From positions 2,624,001 to 2,688,000 of the forward strand of contig CBDBCY010000004.1 in the NCBI GenBank assembly GCA_965203555.1: a DNA stretch of 64,000 bases, read 5' to 3'. Positions 4,994 to 55,508 of the stretch are shown piece by piece (positions within the stretch are counted from its first letter, which is position 1; every line of letters begins with the position of its first letter). This DNA is from Acidimicrobiia bacterium. Lineage in GTDB: Bacteria > Actinomycetota > Acidimicrobiia > Spongiisociales > ZC4RG35. The translations under genes and the position numbers were made by a program. The notes under the pieces were generated by a model. It was not told the origin of the DNA. It searched no databases and was given only the letters and a program-made list of their open reading frames with translations.

Positions 4994-6346
4994 TCAACGT
5001 CTGGCTCCCTGCTTCGCCAACTCTCCCGTGTTCACCAGGTTTCGCGCCGACAGATACTCGGGGTCATCATAACGGTTGAGAAGAAACAACTCCGAGTAGT
5101 CGGGGAGGTCGCTGCCGGCGATATAGCAGCCGACCAGTTCAGCGGCGCCCGTGCAAATCATCACCCCGTATCCCGACATCCCCGTAACCAGATAGAACCC
5201 CTCGGGGCCTGCCGGTCCGATAAGGGGAAGGTTCTCCGGCGTTTTCATCACCCATCCGCCGTCAACCACCGAGTAGGGCAAGTGATGACGATAACGGCTC
5301 AGAGAGGGCATCATCGTGGCCATTCCGCGCATGACCGCCTCGGGAAACATGAAGTCCGGCGCCGGCGCAGGCCAGGTTGGCCGATCTTGAACGACGGGCC
5401 GGTAATTCCAGAGAGCTTCGAAAAAGGGTGAGTCGGCCCCTCCCTCCGGCCGACCGAAGACCGGCGTGGCGATCTCCTCCAGCAACTCGTTGAACCCTGC
5501 ACCGGTCAGGGCAGATCTCTCTTCGTCACTCCAGTCGATAGTTACAGGATCGGTCCACAGGAGCATTGGAGCGTCACGGGGAAACGCTCCGAGGTGGTCC
5601 CTGAATGACACCTTGTGGTGAAGCGATGCGTGCAGGGGCAGTTCCACTCCCACCAGGCGCGCCAACTGAGGCGACATCGGCCCGGCGGCATTGATCACGG
5701 CCGGTGTCGAAATTCGCTGGCCTGACCGTAGTAAGGCGCTTGACACCTTTCCCCGTACGGTCCTTATGTCAACCACCTCATCTAGGACAACCTCTGCTCC
5801 GTGGCGCCTTGCCTCCTCCAGCATGAAGGCCCCCAGTTGCTGGGCGCTGAGCCATCCCCCTCGTCGAACGAACAAAGCACCCATTGCTCTGTCGCTCAGG
5901 TAAGGAAACCGGCTCAGCAAAGCTTCGGGAGTCTGGTAGATGTCGAATCCCCTCTCTTCCCCGGGGGGGTCGCCAGGCTGCCGGTTGATTCGCACGGGTC
6001 CTGCGCCGAACTCCGAACTCGCCTGCGCCGCCCTCGTGAGGGATGCCAATTGCTCAGGATCACCGGTTAGGAACAGGTATCCCCTCCGTGACATGTTGAA
6101 GAAGTTGTTTGATTGGTACTTGAGGACCTCGAGAATGTCAATGGAGCGATTGGTCAGGTCAACCATCGGCCTGTTGGGGAAAAAGTTGCGATAGCACTCC
6201 GATGACTTGTCGGAGGTGAGCGACAGTGGAGGACGGGGATCAACGACAGTCACTTTGTCCACGCCCCGTGTCGCTGCCAACTCGTAGCAAGTGGCGACAC
6301 CCGCGATACCGGCGCCAACCACAACCGCCCCAGCTTGCTGCGCCAT
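4994..6346 (-). CDS. FAD-dependent oxidoreductase, DAO/sarcosine oxidase beta-like
   Basis: N-terminal VVGAGIAG, INAAGP, TPENLPLIG and GMSGYG motifs. Confidence 0.85.
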   Translation of the reverse strand: MAQQAGAVVVGAGIAGVATCYELAATRGVDKVTVVDPRPPLSLTSDKSSECYRNFFPNRPMVDLTNRSIDILEVLKYQSNNFFNMSRRGYLFLTGDPEQLASLTRAAQASSEFGAGPVRINRQPGDPPGEERGFDIYQTPEALLSRFPYLSDRAMGALFVRRGGWLSAQQLGAFMLEEARRHGAEVVLDEVVDIRTVRGKVSSALLRSGQRISTPAVINAAGPMSPQLARLVGVELPLHASLHHKVSFRDHLGAFPRDAPMLLWTDPVTIDWSDEERSALTGAGFNELLEEIATPVFGRPEGGADSPFFEALWNYRPVVQDRPTWPAPAPDFMFPEAVMRGMATMMPSLSRYRHHLPYSVVDGGWVMKTPENLPLIGPAGPEGFYLVTGMSGYGVMICTGAAELVGCYIAGSDLPDYSELFLLNRYDDPEYLSARNLVNTGELAKQGARR

Positions 6347-41055: not shown

Positions 41056-42429
41056 TCAGGGCTGGACCAGGCTGCGCACCTGGGAAACCAACCGGTCCAC
41101 CGCAGGTTGGTCGGGTCCCTCCACGTTCAGCCGGAGGAAGGGCTCGGTGTTGGAGGGGCGCAGGTTGAACCACCGGTCGGGCCAGGAGACGGTCAGGCCG
41201 TCCAGCCGGTCCTGTTCGACCGATGAAAACGCCTCCGCAACCTTGGCCAGGGACCCGGAGCGGTTCGCTACCGCCAGATTGATCTCACCCGAGGCATGGT
41301 AGGGCGCCACATCGCTGTGCAGTTGCGACAGGGGTCGTTTCTGCTCGGAGAGAATGCGCAGCAGGGCCAGGGTGGCCAACATGCCCGAGTCTGCCCGGTA
41401 ATGGGCGGCGAAATAGTAGTGCCCGGAATGTTCTCCGCCGAACAAAGCTCCGGTCTCGGCCATCATCTGCTTCATAAAGGAATGTCCCACCCGAGACCGG
41501 ACGGGGACGCCCCCGCCGGCGATGATGGCTTCGGGAACCGACCGGGAACAGATCAGATTATGGACCACCTTGGCGCCCGGTTGGGAGGCGAGGAAGGAGC
41601 GGGCGATCAAGGTGGTGACCGCGCTTCCCGACATCGGTGCTCCCCGGTCATCGACGAAAAAAGCCCGGTCCGCGTCTCCATCGAAAGCCACTCCCAGGTC
41701 GGCGCCCACCGCTCGGACCTCTTTGACCAGGTCGGTGAGGTTGGCGGGATCTATGGGGTCGGGCGGATGGTTGGGGAAAGTCCCGTCGGGAGTTAGATAC
41801 AGTCCCGTCACTGTGACCGGCAGGCGGGAAAACACCGGTCCCACCACGGTGGCGGCCATGCCGTTCCCGCCGTCCACCACCACCCGCAGGGGGCCTATCT
41901 GGTCGGGACTCACGACGGAGAGCACATGGTCCACATACCCTTCGGTGACGTCGCAGACCGAAACCCGGCCGTGGTTGGCGGAGGCGCCCGGATCGGTCAT
42001 GGCCAGGCGGCGGATCTCGCCCAGCCCCGAGTCGGCCCCGACCGGGGATGCGCCCGGCAGGCACAGCTTGATTCCGTTCCATTGCGGCGGATTGTGGGAG
42101 GCGGTCACCATTGCTCCGGCCACCGACCGGGCCCCGGACACGTAGTAGAGCACCTCGGTGGCTACTTCTCCCAGGTCCAGAACGTCTACGCCGGCCGAGG
42201 TGACGCCTCCGATGAAGGCGCCGGCCAAACCGGGTGAACTGCTTCGGCAATCACGTCCGACCGCCACCGCATCGCCACCGGCGAACCGGGCGAACGCCGC
42301 GCCGATCCGGCGGGCGTGATCGGGAGTGAAGTCACCGGCCGCGACATCTCCCCTGATGTCGTAGGCCTTGAACAGCCCTTCTATCTCCTTGCTCCTTCCC
42401 TGTTGGTCTTCGAGGTGGCGGTTGCCCAT
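41056..42429 (-). CDS. manB: Phosphomannomutase/phosphoglucomutase
   Basis: FKAYDIRG, TASHNP, FDGDADR, GEHSGH and RPSNTEP motifs; start uncertain. Confidence 0.92.
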   Translation of the reverse strand: MGNRHLEDQQGRSKEIEGLFKAYDIRGDVAAGDFTPDHARRIGAAFARFAGGDAVAVGRDCRSSSPGLAGAFIGGVTSAGVDVLDLGEVATEVLYYVSGARSVAGAMVTASHNPPQWNGIKLCLPGASPVGADSGLGEIRRLAMTDPGASANHGRVSVCDVTEGYVDHVLSVVSPDQIGPLRVVVDGGNGMAATVVGPVFSRLPVTVTGLYLTPDGTFPNHPPDPIDPANLTDLVKEVRAVGADLGVAFDGDADRAFFVDDRGAPMSGSAVTTLIARSFLASQPGAKVVHNLICSRSVPEAIIAGGGVPVRSRVGHSFMKQMMAETGALFGGEHSGHYYFAAHYRADSGMLATLALLRILSEQKRPLSQLHSDVAPYHASGEINLAVANRSGSLAKVAEAFSSVEQDRLDGLTVSWPDRWFNLRPSNTEPFLRLNVEGPDQPAVDRLVSQVRSLVQP

Positions 42430-44714
42430 CCCGCCAGTCGCTTTCTTGCCCGGGGAACGCCCAGGACAGCCAGCCCGGCCAGCGTCAGAGCCCAACCCAG
42501 CCACTCGGCCCAGGTGTTCTGAAACTCCAGCACTACCTGTTTTTGGGTCGGGATCACCAGCATCAGGGACGGAGCGGCCAGATAGGGTCCTTCGGCGCCG
42601 GTGGCGTTCCAATTGGGGAAGTAGGAGACCTTGACCAGATGGGGAACTCCCACAGCCTCGGTTTCGAAGGAGATCCGGTGATCCTCCACCACAATGTTGC
42701 TGACCGACCCCATTCGTTCGGGGAGGATCACAGGCCGTAGCAGGGAGGGATCGGAGACGGACGCCCAGCCGTATTCGGGAGGGGCCTCCTCCACCACCCA
42801 CAGATCGGCGTTGTTCAGGGTCTCGAACCAGGCCAGGGAGAAATTGAAGAAGTCCGGTTCCCCATCCGGGCTCTCTTCGAAGACCGATGGCTGGAATCGG
42901 GCTATCTCCACCAGCCGGGTCGGTGGCGCCTCGTATATGTGAAAGGGTCCGGCCACCCCCACCTCCCGCAGTTCAGGGTATTTGGCGGCCTCCTCGGTGG
43001 CCTCCGGTGTGAAGGAGATGTAGTAGCGCACGCCGAACATGTCGAGATGTCGCAGTCCCCGGTCCATGGCGAGATTGTGATATCGCAGCCCCGGCACCGG
43101 ATTGGAGCCCTGCTTGCTCATCTCCGAAATGGTGATGAAGATAAAAGGCATACTCATCGAGGACTCAAAGAACAGTCCCTCCATGGAGGGATGACTCCAC
43201 TCCGACCAGTAGGGGATGAGCATGGGAGCCATGGGAGTCCCGTACTGGTCTATATCCCGGTTGTTCTCCCACAGCACCCGTCCCGGTTCCAGCCCAGCCA
43301 CCAGGGTGTTCATGTCGCGGTATTCGGTCCAGCCCGCCTTGGCCTCGTAGCCGGAGTAGTTCCACCTCGACCAGCCGGCCAGGTAGGAGACCCCGGCCAG
43401 CGACCCCGCTCCCACCCCCACCGCCAATACGGCCGCCACCAGGCTTTTCACCGGAATAATCTGCTGGCGGATATACAGCACTGTCACCACTGCGATCGCT
43501 ACCAGCACCGTCCCGAACACGATCGGCCACCTGCCTCTCGAATCGGTGGCGGGAATCAGTATGCCGGCCACCAACGCCACCGAAGCCACGGTGGTGATGG
43601 CTGCGGCCGCGGGAGAGGCGGACCGGGGCAGGCGCCGGGCGAGCACTACCACCAGGGCGCCCACCGCCACCATGGCGAAGAACACCACCCCGAAGTACCA
43701 GTAGGGAAGAAGCCGCCCGTTGTAGAGCTTCCACCGGTCGTCCAGGAACAATTCCGGGAACTGGCGAGTGAGTCTTATCGGCAGGGGAAAGTAGACAATG
43801 GGCGCCGCTGTGGCTATCAGCAGGGGAACGATCTTCCAGACCTCGCCGGTTCGCCGGGCGCGCCGCAGCGCCCAGACCAGGCCGATCAGAGCCAGTGGAA
43901 GCAGTACCCAGATCTCGGTGGGAAAGAATTCCCGCCACTTGGTGAGAGGGCTCCAGGCCAGATCGGAGCTGTATCCCAGGTTGGCGAGGAACGGAACCGA
44001 CCAAAAGCCCGTCAGCGCAAAAGCCCAGGCCGAGACAACTATCAGAGGGCGGCGGCCTCTTTTGATAGTCAGGAAGGCCACAGTGCCCAATACCAACACC
44101 AGGGTGGTCAGCAGGTGGCACAGGACAGTGATACAGAACACCGCGGCCGTTCTGGGGAGAAGCCGGGATTCGCCGTCTATCACCCGGATCAACAGTCCCA
44201 GATAGATGAAGCCCAGACTGAAGGACCAGGCGTAGGTGAACTCCCCGGCCAGGGTGGAGGCTACGTTCCCCCCGTAGATGGTGAAGCTTTCCATCAGGGC
44301 GTAGACGGTTCCGCCTGCGGCGGCCACCAGGGCTACCAGACGCTGGAACCCCAGGGCCTTGGACAGGAAGTAAACCGCTGGGGGCAGCAGAAGCAAACCT
44401 CCCACGGTGACCAGCTTGAAGGCCACCCCGTAGGGCAGCACCAGATCCAGAAGGACGATGACCAGCGAGGGCAGCGGAAAATAGAAGTAGAAGAGAGGGA
44501 AACCCGCGAACCAGGCATTTGACCACCCCAGCAAGCGACCGGAAGGCAACAACACATCCCGCATGGCGGCCGGTCCCAGCACATGAGCGCCCATGTCGCC
44601 GCCGGAGGGAGTGTTGTCCACAAACAACAGGTGAGGGCTGAGCACGGCCAGCACCATGGCGGAAAGGACCGCCAGCACCCAACCCGGGTACCAGTAAACA
44701 GAGAGCCGTCTCAT
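42381..44714 (-). CDS. Large polytopic membrane protein (PTPS-related/YfhO-like, GT-C-type glycosyltransferase candidate)
   Basis: GGDMGAH after TM1, W..GFPLFYFYFP, about 13 TMs, extracytoplasmic C-domain with VSYFPNW. Confidence 0.7.
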   Translation of the reverse strand: MRRLSVYWYPGWVLAVLSAMVLAVLSPHLLFVDNTPSGGDMGAHVLGPAAMRDVLLPSGRLLGWSNAWFAGFPLFYFYFPLPSLVIVLLDLVLPYGVAFKLVTVGGLLLLPPAVYFLSKALGFQRLVALVAAAGGTVYALMESFTIYGGNVASTLAGEFTYAWSFSLGFIYLGLLIRVIDGESRLLPRTAAVFCITVLCHLLTTLVLVLGTVAFLTIKRGRRPLIVVSAWAFALTGFWSVPFLANLGYSSDLAWSPLTKWREFFPTEIWVLLPLALIGLVWALRRARRTGEVWKIVPLLIATAAPIVYFPLPIRLTRQFPELFLDDRWKLYNGRLLPYWYFGVVFFAMVAVGALVVVLARRLPRSASPAAAAITTVASVALVAGILIPATDSRGRWPIVFGTVLVAIAVVTVLYIRQQIIPVKSLVAAVLAVGVGAGSLAGVSYLAGWSRWNYSGYEAKAGWTEYRDMNTLVAGLEPGRVLWENNRDIDQYGTPMAPMLIPYWSEWSHPSMEGLFFESSMSMPFIFITISEMSKQGSNPVPGLRYHNLAMDRGLRHLDMFGVRYYISFTPEATEEAAKYPELREVGVAGPFHIYEAPPTRLVEIARFQPSVFEESPDGEPDFFNFSLAWFETLNNADLWVVEEAPPEYGWASVSDPSLLRPVILPERMGSVSNIVVEDHRISFETEAVGVPHLVKVSYFPNWNATGAEGPYLAAPSLMLVIPTQKQVVLEFQNTWAEWLGWALTLAGLAVLGVPRARKRLAGWATATSKTNREGARR

Positions 44715-45005: not shown

Positions 45006-45389
45006 TTACTGCAGGTAAACAAAGGATTTCCAACGCTTCAGCAACCGAACGGAAGGCATCCCCTCCCACACCCGACCCACTCCATCTTCATCCACCGCGG
45101 CGGTGGTCGGGACCCGGTCGATCCCATGGTATGCAAACGGTTGCGGCGACTCCGTCCACTTGATCTCACGGAATCCCTTTGGTCCCAGGACCTCGATCAG
45201 TCGTTCCCGGACGGGATCGCATCCGGGGCACCTGCGGGAGGTGAACAACACGACTCCCGGATCCAGGCCTGCCATGGCGCGGCGCCGGGGACGTCGGCGG
45301 TCCACCGTCCTCGCCACCAAGGCAACCGCCAAAGCAACAACCAGCGCTACGAGGGGAACCAGCCATCCGAGCGTTTCGCTGTCAAACAT
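45006..45389 (-). CDS. Membrane-anchored thioredoxin-like protein
   Basis: N-terminal TM, FTSRRCPGC (CxxC), VPT cis-Pro motif. Confidence 0.7.
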   Translation of the reverse strand: MFDSETLGWLVPLVALVVALAVALVARTVDRRRPRRRAMAGLDPGVVLFTSRRCPGCDPVRERLIEVLGPKGFREIKWTESPQPFAYHGIDRVPTTAAVDEDGVGRVWEGMPSVRLLKRWKSFVYLQ

Positions 45390-46863
45390 CGGTGGTTTCC
45401 GGTTTCCGGGCCGAGGCAAAAATCCTGTCTCGCAGCGTCCTCAACCCCCGGCTCACCGATACCGGGTAAGGCGCGGGTTCGATCAGGTCAAGGTACTCGG
45501 GAGAAAGCCGGGCAATGTCCTCTCGGCGTCTCTTCCGCGCAGCCTCAAGGCTTTCGGGCCCGGCCGGCTTGCCTTCTGCTCCCCACACCTCCTCCATAAG
45601 ATGCTCACAGCTGCCAGGCGCTCCATCGCTTGGTCTCTCGTCCGCCAGGGTGACCAGATCTCCTGCTGCGGCGCCGTCCGGACGGTAGCGGCGCCACAGG
45701 CCCTTGCGTCCGGGGATGGCGCTTTTGGCCAGGTCGTCGGTGAGCTTGAAGGCCGGTCTCCAGTCCCGGTCCTGGCGGATGGCGGCCAATTTGTAAACCC
45801 CGTCGAGGCTGGGAGACCCATGGGAGGTGACCAGTCGGGTCCCTACCCCGTACACCAGCCGACCGATCATCCGATCCGGGTATTCTGAACGTCGCGCCAG
45901 TTCATCGGTTATTCGGGCGATGGCAAGTTCATCCAGCCGGTCCGACAGAACGATGGTCGCATCTTCGAAGCCTGCGCGGTCCAGCATCAGAGCCGCCGCC
46001 AGCGCCAGGGGGGCCGGGTCTCCCGAATCGAGGCGAATCCCGACCGGTCGATGTCCCTTGCGACGCAGCTCTTCAAACACCGTTATGGCATTGGGAACAC
46101 CTGACTCCAAGGTGTCGATGGTATCCACCAAAAGCACGCAGTCGTCGGGATAGATCCGGGCAAAAGCGCGGAAGGCCTCGAGTTCGCTCCCTCCCAGGGC
46201 TATGAAAGCCTGTACCAATGAGTGGGCATGGGTACCCTTTGCCTGTAGCCCGGCCTTGTGGGAGGCGCCGACATTCGACGAGAAGTCCGCTCCACCCACC
46301 AGCGCCGCCTCGGTGGCCAGGTTGGCGCCCATTCCCGCCGAGCGGCGCATCCCGAATTCGAGAACCGTTCCCGATCGCGCCGCCCGCTTGACCCGGGCGG
46401 CCTTGGTGGCGATCAGGGTGGCGAAGTTGCGGTGGTTCAGCAGGGCGGTCTCCAAGAGTTGTCCCAGCACCACAGGTCCCTCCACCACTGTGATAGGGGT
46501 ATGGGGGTGAACTACCCGGCCATCGGGAACAGCCCGGATGCGGAGGCGGCGGAAGTCCCCGTGTTCCTCCAGCCAGTCAAGGAAGTCTTTGCCGAACAGC
46601 GCGGCGCCCGAGCCCGACCGCATCGCGGCGAGGGTGCAGCGTTCCGAGTCGCCGAAGCGGAAGGTCGCCACCCGGTCCAGCAGGGACTCGAGGCCGGCCG
46701 AGACGCAATAACCGGCCCGATGATCTCCGTAGGAGGGGTAGGTACGGAAATAATGTTCGTAACAGGCTCGGTAATCAGCGATCCCGTAGCTGACATAGAC
46801 CTGGGCCATGGTCAATTGATACAGGTCGGTGAACAGAGCACCGCGTTGGAGAGAAGGCGCCAT
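45382..46863 (-). CDS. pncB: Nicotinate phosphoribosyltransferase
   Basis: TDLYQLTM, EFGMRR, GTHAHS, LVDT, GIRLDSGD and GVYKL motifs. Confidence 0.93.
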   Translation of the reverse strand: MAPSLQRGALFTDLYQLTMAQVYVSYGIADYRACYEHYFRTYPSYGDHRAGYCVSAGLESLLDRVATFRFGDSERCTLAAMRSGSGAALFGKDFLDWLEEHGDFRRLRIRAVPDGRVVHPHTPITVVEGPVVLGQLLETALLNHRNFATLIATKAARVKRAARSGTVLEFGMRRSAGMGANLATEAALVGGADFSSNVGASHKAGLQAKGTHAHSLVQAFIALGGSELEAFRAFARIYPDDCVLLVDTIDTLESGVPNAITVFEELRRKGHRPVGIRLDSGDPAPLALAAALMLDRAGFEDATIVLSDRLDELAIARITDELARRSEYPDRMIGRLVYGVGTRLVTSHGSPSLDGVYKLAAIRQDRDWRPAFKLTDDLAKSAIPGRKGLWRRYRPDGAAAGDLVTLADERPSDGAPGSCEHLMEEVWGAEGKPAGPESLEAARKRRREDIARLSPEYLDLIEPAPYPVSVSRGLRTLRDRIFASARKPETTDV

Positions 46864-48348: not shown

Positions 48349-48807
48349 TCACCGCATCTTCTTGGGAGGAAGGGCAGTTCGCTCGTACATACCGCTTTCC
48401 TCGGCGATCTCGACCATGTGATCCAGGGAAGACCGGCGCTCCGTGGAGCGGCGCTGCCGAAATTCAAGCACATCTGTGAGCAATACCCGCCGGTGGCGTC
48501 CGGGTTGTTCGAACTTGATCTCGCCGGACTCCAGCAGTTTGACAAAGGTCGGTCGACTGATGCCGAGCAGATCAGCTGCCTGCTGGGTCGTAAGGCGTTG
48601 GTGGATGGGCGCCACTATCACTGCTTGACCCGCGGCCATCGCTTCGACCACACTGCTTAGCACTTCAAAGACTTCTTGGGGAAGAACAAGGTGAGGTCCT
48701 TCGGGCGGTGAAAGCGTAATCGGTCCCTGATGACGGCGGAATAGGGCCATGAGTTCATCCAAGGGCTCTTCAGGCGGTAAGACCGGACGTTCGCGTAGTG
48801 CAGCCAT
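48349..48807 (-). CDS. Excisionase-like HTH (HTH_17) DNA-binding protein, putative antitoxin
   Basis: LTTQQAADLLGISRPTFVKLLESGEI...GRHRRV; RBS AAGGAG. Confidence 0.85.
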   Translation of the reverse strand: MAALRERPVLPPEEPLDELMALFRRHQGPITLSPPEGPHLVLPQEVFEVLSSVVEAMAAGQAVIVAPIHQRLTTQQAADLLGISRPTFVKLLESGEIKFEQPGRHRRVLLTDVLEFRQRRSTERRSSLDHMVEIAEESGMYERTALPPKKMR

Positions 48808-48853
48808 TTGGTGATGCTCCTTTCGCCGACGCCCATCATAAGATGCAAAACGA

Positions 48854-48873
48854 AAAAAACGTAAGCGTTTTTT
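48854..48873. promoter_or_regulatory. Candidate autoregulatory operator of the HTH_17 gene
   Basis: Perfect IR AAAAAACG-taag-CGTTTTTT plus an adjacent AAAACG copy, about 50 bp upstream of the start. Confidence 0.5.
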
Positions 48874-49249
48874 GTATTCCGCATGGTGCACGAGGGTCGA
48901 AAAAACGCCGAAGTCATCGGCCCGCCCTCCGGGAGTCATTCGAGAAAGCGCCACTGTGGACCTAGTGGCACCAACCGGCAACCCCTTCGACCGGCCGGAA
49001 GCACGGTGGACCTCCCGACGGACCGTGATCCCGTCGGGGAAGGTCGCCTCTACCTGACCTCCGGTATAGCTGCCGCTCGAACCGCCGCGCCCATCCCATC
49101 CACCCTGCTGTATTCTTATTCACAACGACTGATGAATACTGTTGGACCCGCGAGGCGCCATGGACTGTTTACCTGATCGCCTCCACCTTATTCCATCCCT
49201 GCATCGCCGCATCAGGCGGCATCCGGCCATTCGGGTGGGCTGAAATCAG

Positions 49250-51001
49250 ATGACGTTTCCCTACAGTGACGAGTCAATCCGTGCCCGCCTGCGGCTCGGT
49301 GAGGATAGCGGATGGGAGTTCAAGGAAGTCGAGTTCCACGGCGATCACCCGGCGTCATGGCATCGTAACGCCTGGGCCGACGAGGTTGCCGCTTTCGCCA
49401 ACGCCGGGGGTGGGGTTCTTCTCATCGGCGTCACGGATGCAGGCGTGGTGTCGGGCATGTCACGCGGTCGCCTCGACGAAGTAGAGCGACTGGTCGGGGA
49501 GGTCTGCCGGGATTCCTTCAAGCCCGCCGTCCGAGTGGCCATATACCGCGGGGAACTGGACGACAGATACTTCCTGCTCGTCGAGATTCCCAAAGGACAT
49601 GCCCAGTACGACAGCCCCGGCGGCAGTTACATTCGTGTCGGCAGCTCAAAGCAGCCGATGACGCCCGACGAGCGGATGCGCCTGGCGCAGCGAAGAGGCC
49701 AAGCCCGGTTCATCGGCGTCGACGAGCAGACGGTGGCCGACACCGGTTTTGACACACTTGACAAAAGGCTGTGGAAGCCGCTGCTGAGCGTAGAGAGCCT
49801 GGCGGACCCTGTGTTGGGACTGGAGAAGCTGGGTTTCTTTGCGACGGACGAGCGTGGCGTGGCGCGAGCCACTGTTGCCGGCGTGTTGGCGTGCACAGAG
49901 GACCCTGAGCGCTTTCTTCCGCATGCCGTCATCAACGCCGTGCGTTACCGCGGAACAGATCGCGCCTCCGGGCAGATAGACGCCCAGGAGATAGGAGGTC
50001 CGATCGATCGACAGATCAAGCAGGCTGTCACATTCGTGAAACGCAACATGCGGGTGGGCGCCCGCAAGGATCCCGCCCGTGAGGACCTGCCCGAATACAG
50101 CATGCGGGCCTTGTTCGAGGGCGTGGTCAACGCGGTAGCGCACCGCGATTACTCGATGGGCGGCAGCCGTGTGCGTCTCGCTGTCTTCTCCGACCGGCTG
50201 GAGCTCTGCTCGCCAGGATCTCTTCCCAACAATCTGACCATCGACAGCATGGCGGAACGCCAATCCACAAGGAACAGCGTGCTTGCTTCTGTGCTCGGTC
50301 GAATGAACGCAGGTGGCATGGAAGGCGCCGAAGGCAGACGGTTTTTCATGGAGCGCCGCGGTGACGGAGTCCCGATCATCCGCCGCGAGACGAAGGCTCT
50401 CACCGGGAAGGAACCGCGGTTCCGGCTCATCGACGACTCGGAACTATGTCTCACGATTCCGGCTGCGGAGACCGATTTCGGACCGGCGACCGTCACTATC
50501 ACCGTTCGTCGGAACCAGGCGCCGCTTGCGGGAGCGGACGTTGTGGCGTTGTTCCCCAACGGGACATGGAAGCGCGGGTCCACGGACTCAGAGGGAGAGA
50601 CACACCTCGACCTGCACGCCGTGCATCTGCCGATGACGGTATTCGCAGCCGCCCCGGGCTGTGCCGCCCGTGTCGAGCCCGAGTGGATTCCGGCGCAACG
50701 GCCGCTCGCCGTCGATCTGACGCCTCTACCCGCTGGCGGATCGGTCGTGTTCCCAGAAGCCACGGGTCACATCCCCGGCCTCGCCGGCCGGCTGAATCCT
50801 ATCCTCGACACCGGTAATCGCACCTACCTCTACGCGACCAACATTGCCATAAACGGTGGACGGATCCAGCCGGTCTCATTCGTACCCGGAGAAGAGGACC
50901 TGCACATGATGGACGCCGATGGTGCAGAGTTCCTTGTGCAGGTGGTGGCCATCACGGGACGTTCGTCAATCCTCGAATATCGCCCCGTCTCCCGCACGTA
51001 G
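49250..51001 (+). CDS. Schlafen/AlbA_2 domain plus HATPase_c_4-like domain plus beta-rich C-terminal domain(s)
   Basis: GEDSGWEFK, AFANAGGG.LLIGV.D; EGVVNAVAHRDYS, DRLELCSPG, RN and MERRGDG; C-terminal PLAGADV...TDSEG...AAAPG. Confidence 0.8.
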   Translation: MTFPYSDESIRARLRLGEDSGWEFKEVEFHGDHPASWHRNAWADEVAAFANAGGGVLLIGVTDAGVVSGMSRGRLDEVERLVGEVCRDSFKPAVRVAIYRGELDDRYFLLVEIPKGHAQYDSPGGSYIRVGSSKQPMTPDERMRLAQRRGQARFIGVDEQTVADTGFDTLDKRLWKPLLSVESLADPVLGLEKLGFFATDERGVARATVAGVLACTEDPERFLPHAVINAVRYRGTDRASGQIDAQEIGGPIDRQIKQAVTFVKRNMRVGARKDPAREDLPEYSMRALFEGVVNAVAHRDYSMGGSRVRLAVFSDRLELCSPGSLPNNLTIDSMAERQSTRNSVLASVLGRMNAGGMEGAEGRRFFMERRGDGVPIIRRETKALTGKEPRFRLIDDSELCLTIPAAETDFGPATVTITVRRNQAPLAGADVVALFPNGTWKRGSTDSEGETHLDLHAVHLPMTVFAAAPGCAARVEPEWIPAQRPLAVDLTPLPAGGSVVFPEATGHIPGLAGRLNPILDTGNRTYLYATNIAINGGRIQPVSFVPGEEDLHMMDADGAEFLVQVVAITGRSSILEYRPVSRT

Positions 51002-51339
51002 AAGACGATCACGCGAACAAGAGCCGTGGATCCGGCCTTACTCAGGCTCACCTGAATCCGTGGGAGAGGTTTCAGGTTGACCAAGTCTCTCAGCGAACGG
51101 TTGCGGAGTTCGGGTCGGATCAGATGAGCGGGCAGGAGCAGGTCGGACCACGGGCCATTGCCTCGGGTTCGGCAGCCTTGATCACCAACATCCCCCCTCG
51201 GGCAAGTGACGGTTTTCAGCCCTCCGGGGCAGGCGGTTTTTCCAACCTTCGTTTCCCTCCGGATAGATCGGCAGGCATCCTCCATTGGGTGGGTGGTATG
51301 AGGATATGCCGGTTACGCTGGGGATTGATGAGGAGACCA

Positions 51340-51702
51340 GTGTTGAACACTTCCGACATCGACTCGCACGATCCCGCATGGCTTGAAGAAACCGAGCGGA
51401 TAGAGTCGGAGATGGTCGCCGAGTTCGACGAACATGGCCCTTTTACCCCCGGGGACACGCTGTTCGCCACCGGACATTACAAGGAAGACCGGCTGGTGTG
51501 GTTCGATTTCCTGACTGCCGCTTTGGACGACATCATGAGAGAATGCGCTATTCCCGAGGAGCAGAGGGAGCAACGGAGGTTGCGGTACCGTAGTTTCACG
51601 GAGGACTTCCTTCGACACTGCGACGGAGCGGAGAAGACGCTTCCCCTGCTTGACGACCAGGAGGGAAAGCACTCCTACGTCCTCAGATTCGCCCCGCCAT
51701 GA
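51340..51702 (+). CDS. Hypothetical acidic protein
   Basis: AGGAG RBS before GTG/TTG; stop overlaps the next start (ATGA); no recognisable motif. Confidence 0.55.
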   Translation: MLNTSDIDSHDPAWLEETERIESEMVAEFDEHGPFTPGDTLFATGHYKEDRLVWFDFLTAALDDIMRECAIPEEQREQRRLRYRSFTEDFLRHCDGAEKTLPLLDDQEGKHSYVLRFAPP

Positions 51703-52307: not shown

Positions 52308-52895
52308 ATGACCGCAGCTTCCCCCAAGACCGCACTGGTGGTGGTGGATGTCCAGAACGACTTCGCCGATCCGCAGGGTTCGTTGTACGTGCGGGGGGCG
52401 GGTTCAGTGGTGGCAGCGGTTAACCGGTTGGTGAATAGCGCCGTCGCCCAGGGTTGGGCGGTGTTCTACACCCAGGACTGGCATCCGGAGACCACGCCCC
52501 ATTTCGCCAAGGACGGTGGGATATGGCCGGTCCACTGCGTGGGAGGATCCACCGGAGCGGCCTTCCATCCCGATCTGGTGGTGAGAGGGGTGTCCGTGAA
52601 GAAGGGCGGCGCCGGCGAGGACGGCTATTCGGGATTCACCATGCGGGATCTGGTGGAAGGCAGGGACCGGCCCACCGAACTGGATTCGCTTCTGCGCCGG
52701 GACGGGGTCACCCGGGTGGTGGTGGTCGGTCTGGCGTTGGACTATTGCGTGAAGGACACTGCCCTGGACGCGGTCCGGTTGGGATACGAAGTGGAGGTGC
52801 CCCTGGGCGCCACCGCGCCGGTCAATCTGTCTCCCGACGACGGGAACCGGGCTATCGCTGCGCTTCGCGGGGCCGGGGTCTCGGTTACCGGCTGA
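52308..52895 (+). CDS. pncA: Nicotinamidase/pyrazinamidase
   Basis: VDVQNDF, QDWHP, WPVHCV, YSGF and GLALDYCV motifs. Confidence 0.9.
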   Translation: MTAASPKTALVVVDVQNDFADPQGSLYVRGAGSVVAAVNRLVNSAVAQGWAVFYTQDWHPETTPHFAKDGGIWPVHCVGGSTGAAFHPDLVVRGVSVKKGGAGEDGYSGFTMRDLVEGRDRPTELDSLLRRDGVTRVVVVGLALDYCVKDTALDAVRLGYEVEVPLGATAPVNLSPDDGNRAIAALRGAGVSVTG

Positions 52896-54495
52896 GGGAC
52901 TCGCCTCGACGCAGAAGGAGTCGGCGGTAGGTCTTCCACAGCGGATTCTCGGCGGGCCGCAAGGTGGGAAAGAGTATCACGTCCCGGATGTGGGCGCGAT
53001 TGGTCAGCAGCATCACCAAGCGGTCGACTCCCAGGCCCAGGCCTCCGGTGGGAGGCATTCCGTAACCAAGTGCCAGCACGAAGTCCTCGTCGACGGGATG
53101 CAACTCCGGATCGTCCGCACCCAGGAGAGCAGCCTGGTTCTCGAATCGGGAAAGTTGGTCGACCGGGTCGTTTAGCTCCGAGAAGGCATTGGCGAACTCC
53201 ACCCCGGCGATGAACAGTTCGAAGCGTTCGGTGAGTCGGGGATCGCCGGGGCACCGGCGCGCCAGGGGAGAGACTTCCAGGGGGTAATCCGTTACGAAGG
53301 TGGGTTCCAGCAGTTCGGGAACGGCCAGGCGGTCGAATATTTCGTAGATGATCCGCCCGCTGGTCCACTCTTCCGCTGTATTCAGCCCCCGTTTCTCCGC
53401 CTGTCCCTGCAGGGAGTCGGGGGGTATGTCCAGGGTGACCTCTTCTCCCATCACTTCGCTCACCAACTCCAGCATGGGTACTTCCCGGTAGGGTGGTTCC
53501 AGGGAGAGGGGGGTTTCCAGCATGGGCCGTGTCCCGGCAGCGTCGGCGCCGGGCCCCCCGGCCACTGTGGTGGTTCCCGTGGCTTTGACGGCCACCGCCG
53601 GAATCACCTCCTCGACCAGTCTCATCACGTCCCGGTAGTCGCAGAAAGCCTGGTAGGACTCCAGCATGGTGAACTCGGGGTTGTGGGAGGAGTCCACCCC
53701 TTCGTTGCGAAAGATCCGGCCGATCTCGAACACCCGCTCGAACCCCCCGATGATCAGCCGCTTGAGGTACAGTTCGGTGGCGATCCTCATGTACAGCTCT
53801 ATGTCCAGGGCGTTGTGATGGGTCAGGAACGGCCGGGCGGCTGCTCCGGCCGCCCGGGAGGTGAGGATGGGAGTGTCGACCTCCATGAACCCGCGCTGAT
53901 GGAACTGGTTGCGAAGTTCGGACACCACCGCCGAGCGGATCTCGAAGGTCCGCCGACTCTGTGGGTTGACCACCAGGTCCAGGTGTCGACGCCGGGAGCG
54001 TTGCTCGACGTCCCGCAAGCCTTTCCACTTGTCGGGCAGCGGCGCCAAACATTTGGCGAGAAGGTCGATCTGCTTCACGTCGATGGATAGTTCCCCGCGC
54101 CGGGTGGTGATCACTTCGCCGGTGGCGCCCACCCAGTCGCCGAGGTCGAGGCGGGATATCACCTCCTGAGACTCGGGTTGCAGGCCGGACTGCGATACGA
54201 AGAGTTGCAGATCGGCTCTCTGATCGGAGAAGGTGATGAACACGAGTCGTCCGAAATTGCGGATCAACCGGACTCGCCCAGCCACCGACACCACTTTCCC
54301 GGTGCGCGCATCGGGCGCCAGGGTTCCGTACCGGTCCCTGATCTGTGAGGCGGTGTGGGTTCGATCAAACCGGGTCGGCCACGGTTCGATGTTCCGGGAG
54401 GCGAGGCTCTCCAAACCGTCGAGGCGTTCTTCGAGGACCCTTCCCCACAGCCCTGCACTGCCAGGCTCGGGGCGATCCGGTCCTTGGTCGTCCAT
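52885..54495 (-). CDS. lysS: Lysyl-tRNA synthetase (class II)
   Basis: GAAARPF.THHN, YLKRLIIGG, FRNEG...HNPEFT, ERFELF and YGMPPTGG.G.G.DRL motifs. Confidence 0.97.
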   Translation of the reverse strand: MDDQGPDRPEPGSAGLWGRVLEERLDGLESLASRNIEPWPTRFDRTHTASQIRDRYGTLAPDARTGKVVSVAGRVRLIRNFGRLVFITFSDQRADLQLFVSQSGLQPESQEVISRLDLGDWVGATGEVITTRRGELSIDVKQIDLLAKCLAPLPDKWKGLRDVEQRSRRRHLDLVVNPQSRRTFEIRSAVVSELRNQFHQRGFMEVDTPILTSRAAGAAARPFLTHHNALDIELYMRIATELYLKRLIIGGFERVFEIGRIFRNEGVDSSHNPEFTMLESYQAFCDYRDVMRLVEEVIPAVAVKATGTTTVAGGPGADAAGTRPMLETPLSLEPPYREVPMLELVSEVMGEEVTLDIPPDSLQGQAEKRGLNTAEEWTSGRIIYEIFDRLAVPELLEPTFVTDYPLEVSPLARRCPGDPRLTERFELFIAGVEFANAFSELNDPVDQLSRFENQAALLGADDPELHPVDEDFVLALGYGMPPTGGLGLGVDRLVMLLTNRAHIRDVILFPTLRPAENPLWKTYRRLLLRRGESLSR

Positions 54496-54551
54496 CAGGC
54501 ATCAACCTAACAGGGCAACCGAGCAGAAAAGAAAGATCACTCCTCCCCGCC

Positions 54552-54697
54552 GAAAAGTAACCGACCCGCCCCCGGGAGGGGAGGGAGGGCGGGCCGGTAT
54601 GTGCCTGCCGCCCCGGGAGGGGTGGAGGGCGGTCAGGCTGCCCACCGGCCTTCCGGGAGGGGACGGGGAAAGCCGGCAGGAGGTCTGTTGTTGTGGA
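54552..54697 (-). ncRNA. Candidate three-hairpin sRNA with C-rich loops (6C/cuckoo-like) or structured lysS leader
   Basis: Three GC stems (54561-97, 54603-38, 54645-76), each carrying CCCCUCCCGG; upstream promoter; UUACUUUU after the last stem. Confidence 0.65.
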
Positions 54698-54702
54698 ATC
54701 GA

Positions 54703-54732
54703 ATAATAATCAGTTCGGAGAAGCTATGTCAA
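54703..54732 (-). promoter_or_regulatory. Sigma70/SigA-type promoter
   Basis: TTGACA (54732-54727), 18-nt spacer, TATTAT (54708-54703), in an AT-rich patch. Confidence 0.75.
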
Positions 54733-54743
54733 CTGAATAGTAC

Positions 54744-55508
54744 TTAAGAATTCAACTCCAATACCACCAGCAAACCCCGCAGGGTCAGATCGTCCTCTAT
54801 GTGAGTAATGGTTTCGCAAACCGGCCCGATCAGGCGAGCCAGGCCGCCGGTTGCCACCACCGGCAAGGCCCCCAGACGTTGTTCGGTGCAGATCCTTCTC
54901 ACCAGACCGTCCACCAGACCGGCCCATCCGAACACCAGGCCGCTCTGCACCGCTTCGGTGGTGTTGCGCCCGGTGGCCTGCCTGGGTGCAGTCAACTCCA
55001 CCCTGCGAAGGGCGGATGCGGCGGCGGCCAGGGCGTCTCCCGCCACCTGCACTCCGGGAGCGATGGCGCCCCCACAGTAGGCGCCCGATGAGTCGATCAC
55101 ATCCACGGTGGTGGCTGTTCCGAAATCCACCACCAAGACCGGAGCGCCGAACCGCTCTACTGCTCCGATGGCGTTCACCACCCGGTCGGCGCCCACTTCC
55201 CGAGGATTGTCGATCCGGATCTGGATGCCGGTACGCACTCCCGGTCCAACCACTGTCACCGGGCCGTTTACCAATTCCGTCAGGACGGGCCGGATGGCGG
55301 AGACGGCGGTGGGCACCACGCTGGAGAGCGCCGCGCCGAGCAGGGGCAGCGGGACTTCGGACAGCAGGCCGCTGAGAAGGATGCGGTATTCGTCGGCGGT
55401 GCGGGATACATCGGTGGAAATCCGCCAGCGATGCTCCAGTGACCGGCCTCGATAGGCCCCGATGACGGTCTGGGTGTTGCCGATGTCCACGGCTAGGAGC
55501 ATGCTCAC
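54744..55508 (-). CDS. coaX: Type III pantothenate kinase
   Basis: DIGNT, SSVVP, VGADR, DFGTATT, GGAI.PG and ATGG motifs. Confidence 0.95.
   Translation of the reverse strand: MSMLLAVDIGNTQTVIGAYRGRSLEHRWRISTDVSRTADEYRILLSGLLSEVPLPLLGAALSSVVPTAVSAIRPVLTELVNGPVTVVGPGVRTGIQIRIDNPREVGADRVVNAIGAVERFGAPVLVVDFGTATTVDVIDSSGAYCGGAIAPGVQVAGDALAAAASALRRVELTAPRQATGRNTTEAVQSGLVFGWAGLVDGLVRRICTEQRLGALPVVATGGLARLIGPVCETITHIEDDLTLRGLLVVLELNS

Follow-up and report, generated by a model that had tools for sequence, protein, structure and literature searches.

A conserved three-hairpin RNA element with C-rich loops between coaX and lysS in an Acidimicrobiia bacterium

INTRODUCTION

What does the DNA between coaX and lysS encode in an Acidimicrobiia bacterium (Actinomycetota) whose intergenic region carries three adjacent hairpins on the minus strand? 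An initial annotation had presented the hairpins as a possible trans-acting small RNA (sRNA) with anti-Shine-Dalgarno (aSD)-like loops, or else as an attenuator for lysS, and had likened them to 6C and cuckoo RNAs. We asked whether the hairpins are conserved as RNA, whether they have a promoter of their own, and how far they resemble described families.

C-rich unpaired motifs pair with G-rich ribosome-binding sites in the RsaE/RoxS RNAs of Firmicutes. 6C (RF01066) is the RNA named B11/ncRv13660c in Mycobacterium tuberculosis. As defined in the excerpts of PMC1950547 used here, 6C consists of two hairpins, each loop with a run of at least 6 Cs, and it usually lies 200-300 nt from chromosome-partitioning or pilus-assembly genes. 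The C-rich loops of M. tuberculosis 6C bind the G-rich panD and dnaB ribosome-binding sites without chaperones, according to the cited portion of PMC6486639. Cuckoo RNAs are described in the cited passages of PMC4615179 as alphaproteobacterial RNAs of two to four adjacent hairpins, with varying stems and one shared aSD-like C/U-rich loop motif, CCUCCUCCC; the three-hairpin form is commonest, and most are multi-copy. The CIN1 subgroup adjoins a DUF1127 gene.

RESULTS

Genomic context of the element

The element occupies the intergenic region between coaX and lysS on the minus strand of a 64-kb window, by which we mean the whole stretch of DNA analyzed. Upstream lies coaX (54744..55508, minus strand; type III pantothenate kinase, Pan_kinase 6.4e-66), the final gene of DUF2520-panC-coaX. 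Downstream lies lysS (52885..54495, minus strand), which encodes a class II lysyl-tRNA synthetase with tRNA-synt_2 (4.5e-84) and tRNA_anti-codon domains. Genes on this strand run in the order tilS-like PP-loop gene, ftsH, DUF2520 gene, panC, coaX, element, and lysS; beyond the two immediate neighbors lie panC, the DUF2520 gene, ftsH, and an isochorismatase-family gene. We take the lysS-coaX-panC order seen here to be the order around these genes in mycobacteria. The first hairpin starts 64 nt past the coaX stop codon, and the lysS ATG (54495) lies 57 nt beyond the U-rich tract that follows the third, close to the 55 nt or so given initially. The 3' ends of lysS and of the isochorismatase-family gene, which is convergent with it (52308-52895, plus strand), share 11 nt (52885-52895).

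Three hairpins present the same C-rich loop

Read along the minus strand, the element begins with H1 (54641..54680), which has a 14-bp stem and a 12-nt loop, CCGUCCCCUCCC, at 54666..54655. It is followed by H2 (54603..54638), with a 12-bp stem, one bulged A and an 11-nt loop, CCACCCCUCCC, at 54625..54615, and then by H3 (54560..54598), with a 14-bp stem and an 11-nt loop, CCUCCCCUCCC, at 54584..54574. A U-rich tail at 54553..54559 reads UUACUUUU together with the last stem base (54560..54553). All three loops end in CCCCUCCC and follow the pattern CC-N-CCCCUCCC; each contains 9-10 C, with a longest unbroken run of 4. The 143-nt RNA has a minimum free energy (MFE) of -76.6 kcal/mol (z = -4.82), and none of 200 shuffled sequences folded as well. 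In its centroid structure (-76.5 kcal/mol), the three hairpins are identical to those of the MFE fold.

The 10-mer CCCCTCCCGG occurs exactly three times on both strands of the 64-kb window, at 54572, 54613, and 54653, all within the element. At least three matches anywhere were reached in 3 of 100 shuffles, a control that ignores both the clustering within 90 nt and the placement in loops. When the stems of the modules were compared pairwise by rank from the loop, H1 and H2 differed in both bases of 7 of the 12 rank-matched pairs with pairing kept, while the upper 7 bp of the stem were identical between H2 and H3. The initial annotation therefore stands as to the three GC hairpins at 54680..54560, the shared 10-mer, the tract after the third hairpin, and a plus-strand G-run (GGGAGGGGAGGGAGGG) at 54574-54589. 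Its statement that the stems differ holds for H1 versus H2 and H3 and for the lower stems, but not for the upper stems of H2 and H3.

H3, which folds alone at -28.5 kcal/mol, is a probable terminator hairpin, and from its sequence the U-rich tail is probably the 3' end of the RNA. H3 is atypical as a terminator, having an 11-nt loop and an interrupted U-tract, and it was not called in a consensus terminator scan that accepts loops of 3-8 nt only. Because of these two features termination may be leaky and lysS possibly co-transcribed, in which case the element would be at least partly a 5' UTR.

We also considered readings in which the minus-strand RNA is not the product. A plus-strand RNA was rejected: on that strand the three-hairpin fold is lost, the z-score is -2.0 with an ill-defined ensemble, and the G-U pairs of the minus-strand fold (6 of 41) become A.C mismatches. 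A coding element was likewise rejected, as the open frames of the window and of the relative described below are not alike in strand, frame, or length, and a 1-nt indel in the second linker would shift any frame across the element. Antisense ORFs of 48 and 32 aa, compared with predicted proteins, gave four word-sharing candidates, none at E<=0.01.

The element is conserved in a diverged relative

Genomes were scanned for CCCCTCCC occurring three times with gaps of 24-44, and at least 121 stretches matched. Among the 121 matches listed, folding and a covariance model (R1) identified one true homologue, L021, at 145.6 bits; the next-best locus among these matches, a palindromic repeat that carries the motif in its stem, scored 30.1 bits. 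The remaining matches examined were tandem, coding, or CRISPR-like repeats, or palindromes with the motif in stems. One such non-homologous group, with members in Novosphingobium, Anaerolineales, Chloroflexota, and others, consisted of palindromic repeats whose long stems pair CCCCTCCC with GGGAGGGG, and another comprised regular arrays with a period of ~36-40 nt, resembling CRISPR or tandem repeats. Loci L005, L050, L076, L078, and L098, as well as L007, L026, and L028, bear no relation to the element.

With filters off, R1 matched the 64-kb window once, at 142.8 bits (the next-best match had 11.9 bits, E = 0.48), and gave a single copy in the 8 kb of L021; a REP- or MITE-like repeat would be expected in many copies per genome. 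A blastn search of the element against plasmids and phages gave no match.

Gene order at L021 is panC, coaX, element, lysS, and then an ORF of ~194 aa on the opposite strand, which occupies the place of the isochorismatase-family gene of the window. This ORF (5751-6335) has the same convergent arrangement after lysS. Between the window and L021, amino acid identity is 88% for CoaX, 77% for LysS, and 72% for PanC, values by which L021 is taken as a different species or genus. Four-fold degenerate third positions were identical at 90/157 sites in CoaX, 125/241 in LysS, and 62/132 in PanC (47-57%), so silent-site divergence is near saturation for this base composition. The tight relatives of the window CoaX form ~24 clusters at 87-94% identity, and the next tier, at 64% identity or below, carries names such as 'Acidimicrobiia bacterium'.

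Against this divergence, 121 of the 129 columns of the core, from H1 to the tail, were identical to L021. Identity was 37/40 in H1, 35/36 in H2, 39/39 in H3, and 7/7 in the U-rich tail, which makes H3 plus tail invariant (46/46). All 34 loop bases were unchanged, including positions outside CCCCUCCC, and the loop conservation that had been expected in relatives is thus found in the one relative compared. Intergenic columns outside the core and the motifs were identical at only 38 of 95 positions (core versus these columns, Fisher p = 3.6e-19).

The eight differing core columns comprise four in the linkers, one in the H2 bulge, and three in the H1 stem. The two linkers differ at 4 of 7 columns, one of them an indel, and the sole change in H2 converts the bulged A to C. 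In the H1 stem, a U-G pair becomes C-G, a G-U pair becomes G-C, and a C-G pair becomes a C.A mismatch. These changes fall where an RNA structure would tolerate them. Compensatory changes on both sides were seen at 0 of 43 predicted pairs, a count that carries no power at n=2. The structure is supported by energy, by the conservation pattern, and by the comparison of modules, not by ortholog covariation.

A near-consensus promoter precedes the hairpins

A Sigma-70/SigA-type promoter at 54703..54732 (minus strand) begins 11 nt past the coaX stop codon. Its -35 hexamer, TTGACA (54732..54727), is separated by an 18-nt spacer from the -10 hexamer, TATTAT (54708..54703), and 11 of 12 consensus positions are matched, in agreement with the near-consensus promoter reported initially. 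This was 1 site in 1.2 kb, compared to 0.1 expected from shuffled sequence. In L021, both hexamers are unchanged (6/6 at the -10, and identical at the -35), with a spacer of 17 nt; in contrast, the promoter spacer is identical at 7/15 columns and the flank back to the coaX stop at 3/9. We infer a transcription start near 54696.

The 5' leader (54681..54702, minus strand) runs from just after the -10 up to H1, so that its first bases precede the inferred start. It is largely unstructured, and 11 of its 22 columns match L021. The initial annotation had drawn attention to an unstructured ACCUCCU motif here, but in the predicted fold its CCU is paired in the base of H1, and the counterpart in L021 reads ACCACCU; the motif is neither fully unpaired nor conserved. 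Collectively, the sequence comparisons support a discrete RNA element on the minus strand that is under strong purifying selection and has its own conserved near-consensus promoter, and the conservation pattern reads as the footprint of a functional structured RNA to which that promoter belongs.

Sequences between the hairpins and lysS

The spacer between the RNA and lysS (54510..54552, minus strand) is 43 nt long and holds GGGGAGGAG, a weak G-U hairpin, and a pyrimidine tract. It matches L021 at 17 of 46 columns, GGGGAGGAG is absent from L021, and terminator-like calls in the spacers of the window and L021 are at chance level. An 11-mer, TAGGTTGATGC (54499..54509, minus strand), ends 3 nt before the lysS ATG and is identical in L021 (11/11) although its surroundings have diverged. 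This 11-mer may be a -10 element or the ribosome-binding region of lysS. It contains TAGGTT, which we take to fit an actinobacterial -10 pattern, TANNNT; as a -10, TAGGTT would give lysS its own, nearly leaderless start.

An attenuator for lysS, the alternative offered initially, is not supported by these data, because the flanks needed for alternative pairing have diverged (11/22 columns in the 5' leader and 17/46 in the spacer) and GGGGAGGAG is missing in L021.

Loop complementarity at candidate translation starts

We scanned the 64-kb window for potential targets of the loops, using a crude duplex calculation with a cutoff of -12 kcal/mol or below, a scan weakened by uncertain start codons. 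Complementarity was not enriched at candidate starts (8.7% of 704, versus 6.9% of 3000 random 25-mers). Around the starts of lysS, coaX, panC, the DUF2520 gene, and ftsH, complementarity to the loops was not convincing. A link to the pantothenate genes, suggested by the pairing of 6C with panD in M. tuberculosis, is therefore unsupported here.

In the 35 nt before the start codons chosen for the five genes around the element (54495, 55508, 56407, 57699, and 59676), no G-rich Shine-Dalgarno sequence is obvious. Either these starts are misplaced or the organism uses few strong Shine-Dalgarno sites, and a scarcity of G-rich sites would bear on the possible targets of C-rich loops.

The element resembles 6C and cuckoo RNAs but scores below their thresholds

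A search of the whole window against Rfam 15 at gathering thresholds gave no match. In a permissive search of 651 nt, the best matches were the families that had been suggested, 6C and cuckoo/CcsR, though all were sub-threshold. 6C scored 28.7 bits against a gathering threshold of 47 (E = 0.1) over H2 and H3, CcsR1 scored 25.1 of 65.3 bits, ar14 24.8 of 58.8 bits over all three hairpins, and ar7 15.8 of 60 bits. The corresponding region of L021 scored 23.9 bits for ar14 and 18.0 bits for CcsR1, and gave no 6C match at E<=1.

The likeness to 6C extends to several features. Both occur in Actinomycetota, to which the host class Acidimicrobiia belongs; the element has adjacent GC-rich hairpins, C-rich loops, and U's after the last hairpin; and H2 and H3 together align over the whole length of the 6C model. 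The promoters are also alike, as 6C of Corynebacterium glutamicum has a strong housekeeping-type promoter according to the cited part of PMC5014011. However, the element has three C-rich hairpins in ~140 nt rather than two in ~80 nt, its CCCCUCCC loops fall short of the run of at least 6 Cs stipulated in the cited excerpts of PMC1950547, and it lies between coaX and lysS rather than near partition or pilus genes. These differences add to its low score and to the missing 6C match in L021.

With CcsR1-4 (RF02791) and ar14/NfeR1 (RF02344), the element shares three adjacent hairpins carrying one loop motif, here CCCCUCCC, and the ar14 model aligns across all three. In contrast to the cuckoo RNAs, as portrayed in the cited passages of PMC4615179, the loops of both the window and L021 are CCCCUCCC rather than CCUCCUCCC, the host belongs to Acidimicrobiia rather than Alphaproteobacteria, the neighbors are coaX and lysS with no adjacent DUF1127 gene, and the DNA examined has a single copy of the element, against the several copies usual for cuckoo RNAs. 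Scores in both sequences are also sub-threshold, and the likeness is most simply read as convergence. A looser parallel is Staphylococcus aureus RNAIII, in which several unpaired C-rich (UCCC) loop motifs pair with G-rich ribosome-binding sites (PMC4615179, cited in part). The fold and sequence of RNAIII and of RsaE/RoxS are unlike the element, and neither gave an Rfam match at E<=10. The initial comparison with 6C and cuckoo RNAs is thus borne out as a matter of architecture, and the best reading is that the element may work as they do, by analogy, while belonging to neither family.

DISCUSSION

We have high confidence that the selectively conserved, structured minus-strand RNA gene described here is real. 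As to its function, we lean, by a modest margin over even, toward an independently transcribed sRNA of ~140 nt whose three redundant C-rich loops would pair with G-rich sites on mRNAs, a reading that draws on analogy with characterized RNAs. Such an RNA would be transcribed from its own strong housekeeping-type promoter on the minus strand, with a start near 54696, and would probably end at H3 and UUACUUUU, near 54553. Its three adjacent GC-rich hairpins would each present the same CC-N-CCCCUCCC loop. By analogy with 6C and with cuckoo/CcsR/ar14 RNAs, these loops would most likely bind mRNA segments that are single-stranded and rich in G, for example Shine-Dalgarno-like GGGAGG(GG), and pairing in trans might repress translation or destabilize several target mRNAs. 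Three redundant seeds might provide more avidity or capacity.

An alternative that we consider unlikely is that the hairpins are a cis-acting 5' leader of lysS, with the promoter at 54732..54703 serving as the lysS promoter and any short RNA being a by-product; the leader could act by attenuation at H3, through mRNA stability, or by loops that bind a protein or ribosomes. The arrangement invites this reading, since the element lies directly 5' of lysS on the same strand in both the window and L021, the stretch from H3 to lysS yielded no consensus promoter in either, and the atypical form of H3 makes read-through plausible. The 5' UTR of an adjacent gene is the source of some cuckoo RNAs, according to the cited part of PMC8034643, and the 6C authors cite a hypothesis that C-rich stem-loops are alternative terminators (PMC6486639, cited in part). 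An attenuator or riboswitch, however, needs a conserved alternative pairing, and the flanks have diverged, with identity at 11/22 columns of the 5' leader and 17/46 of the 3' spacer. The sole G-rich partner for the loops downstream, GGGGAGGAG, is missing in L021, and the lysS start region lacks loop complementarity (duplexes of -2.7 and -2.6 kcal/mol). Rfam returned no T-box, lysine riboswitch, or other leader-family match, and the conserved TAGGTTGATGC 3 nt before the ATG could be the -10 or ribosome-binding site of lysS itself. A somewhat less probable alternative is a decoy in which the three identical loops titrate a protein specific for C-rich loops, much as CsrB/RsmZ RNAs display repeated GGA loops. 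The repetition of one motif on separate hairpins and the lack of mRNA-target enrichment in the window scan are what such a decoy would show, and identity at 34 of 34 loop bases is stricter than pairing alone requires; nevertheless, with two sequences that identity fits both models equally. No candidate binding protein is encoded beside the element, and 6C and CcsR, the C-rich-loop RNAs that have been characterized, work through base pairing.

We regard it as very unlikely that there is no dedicated RNA gene, and that the hairpins are instead a terminator or stabilizer array for DUF2520-panC-coaX, a REP-like repeat, or a DNA-level element, for instance a G-quadruplex-capable plus strand. The proximity to the coaX stop codon (64 nt) would suit an array of this kind, as GC-rich hairpins followed by U's can terminate or protect an upstream mRNA, and both the plus-strand GGGAGGGGAGGGAGGG and the many palindromic repeats with CCCCTCCC in other bacteria could be read in its favor. 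Yet a conserved near-consensus promoter stands between the coaX stop and H1, and terminators do not need three near-identical loops of 11-12 nt that remain invariant at saturating divergence. The REP-like matches of the scan pair the motif within stems, but in the element every copy of the motif lies in a loop; the element is also single-copy in the 64 kb and in the 8 kb of L021, and is absent from the plasmids and phages searched. The G-run, for its part, is the automatic result of C-rich loops closed by G-rich arms.

If the trans-acting sRNA reading is adopted, its place among RNA families can be considered. The papers listed in a search on sRNAs in Acidimicrobiia described no such RNA, judged by titles and the start of abstracts, and a full-text search for the loop motif gave, among the matches listed, eukaryotic or (by title) unrelated papers and no bacterial sRNA; regulatory RNAs of Acidimicrobiia appear to be undescribed. 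We tentatively raise the possibility, which we would put at below even, that deep-branching Actinomycetota (Acidimicrobiia) have a family of modular sRNAs with aSD-like loops that is not yet catalogued, with the element as its founding member, and that it is either convergent with cuckoo RNAs or an ancient three-module sister of 6C. The convergent version, if true, would be an independent reinvention of the cuckoo design of several hairpins with one shared C-rich seed, while the sister version would show that, within the phylum, 6C-type RNAs differ in how many modules they have and in where in the genome they lie. On either version, a largely uncultured lineage would have a constitutively expressed global regulator that needs no chaperone and acts on G-rich translation-initiation regions. 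The element opens no new kind of mechanism; it would be a third lineage-specific solution, after 6C and cuckoo RNAs, in which a multi-hairpin C-rich seed is directed at G-rich ribosome-binding sites. It would also support the view that high-GC bacteria rely on G-C-rich, chaperone-independent pairing between sRNA and mRNA, and a model such as R1 would annotate a gene that Rfam 15 misses.

Elsewhere in the window, the ORFs at 42381-44714 (777 aa), 45103-45888, and 51124-51702 are without a Pfam match at 1e-5. An HTH_17 protein (48349-48981, minus strand) adjoins a 583-aa Schlafen AlbA_2/HATPase_c_4 protein (49250-51001, plus strand), and pairs of this type are often found in mobile or defence islands.
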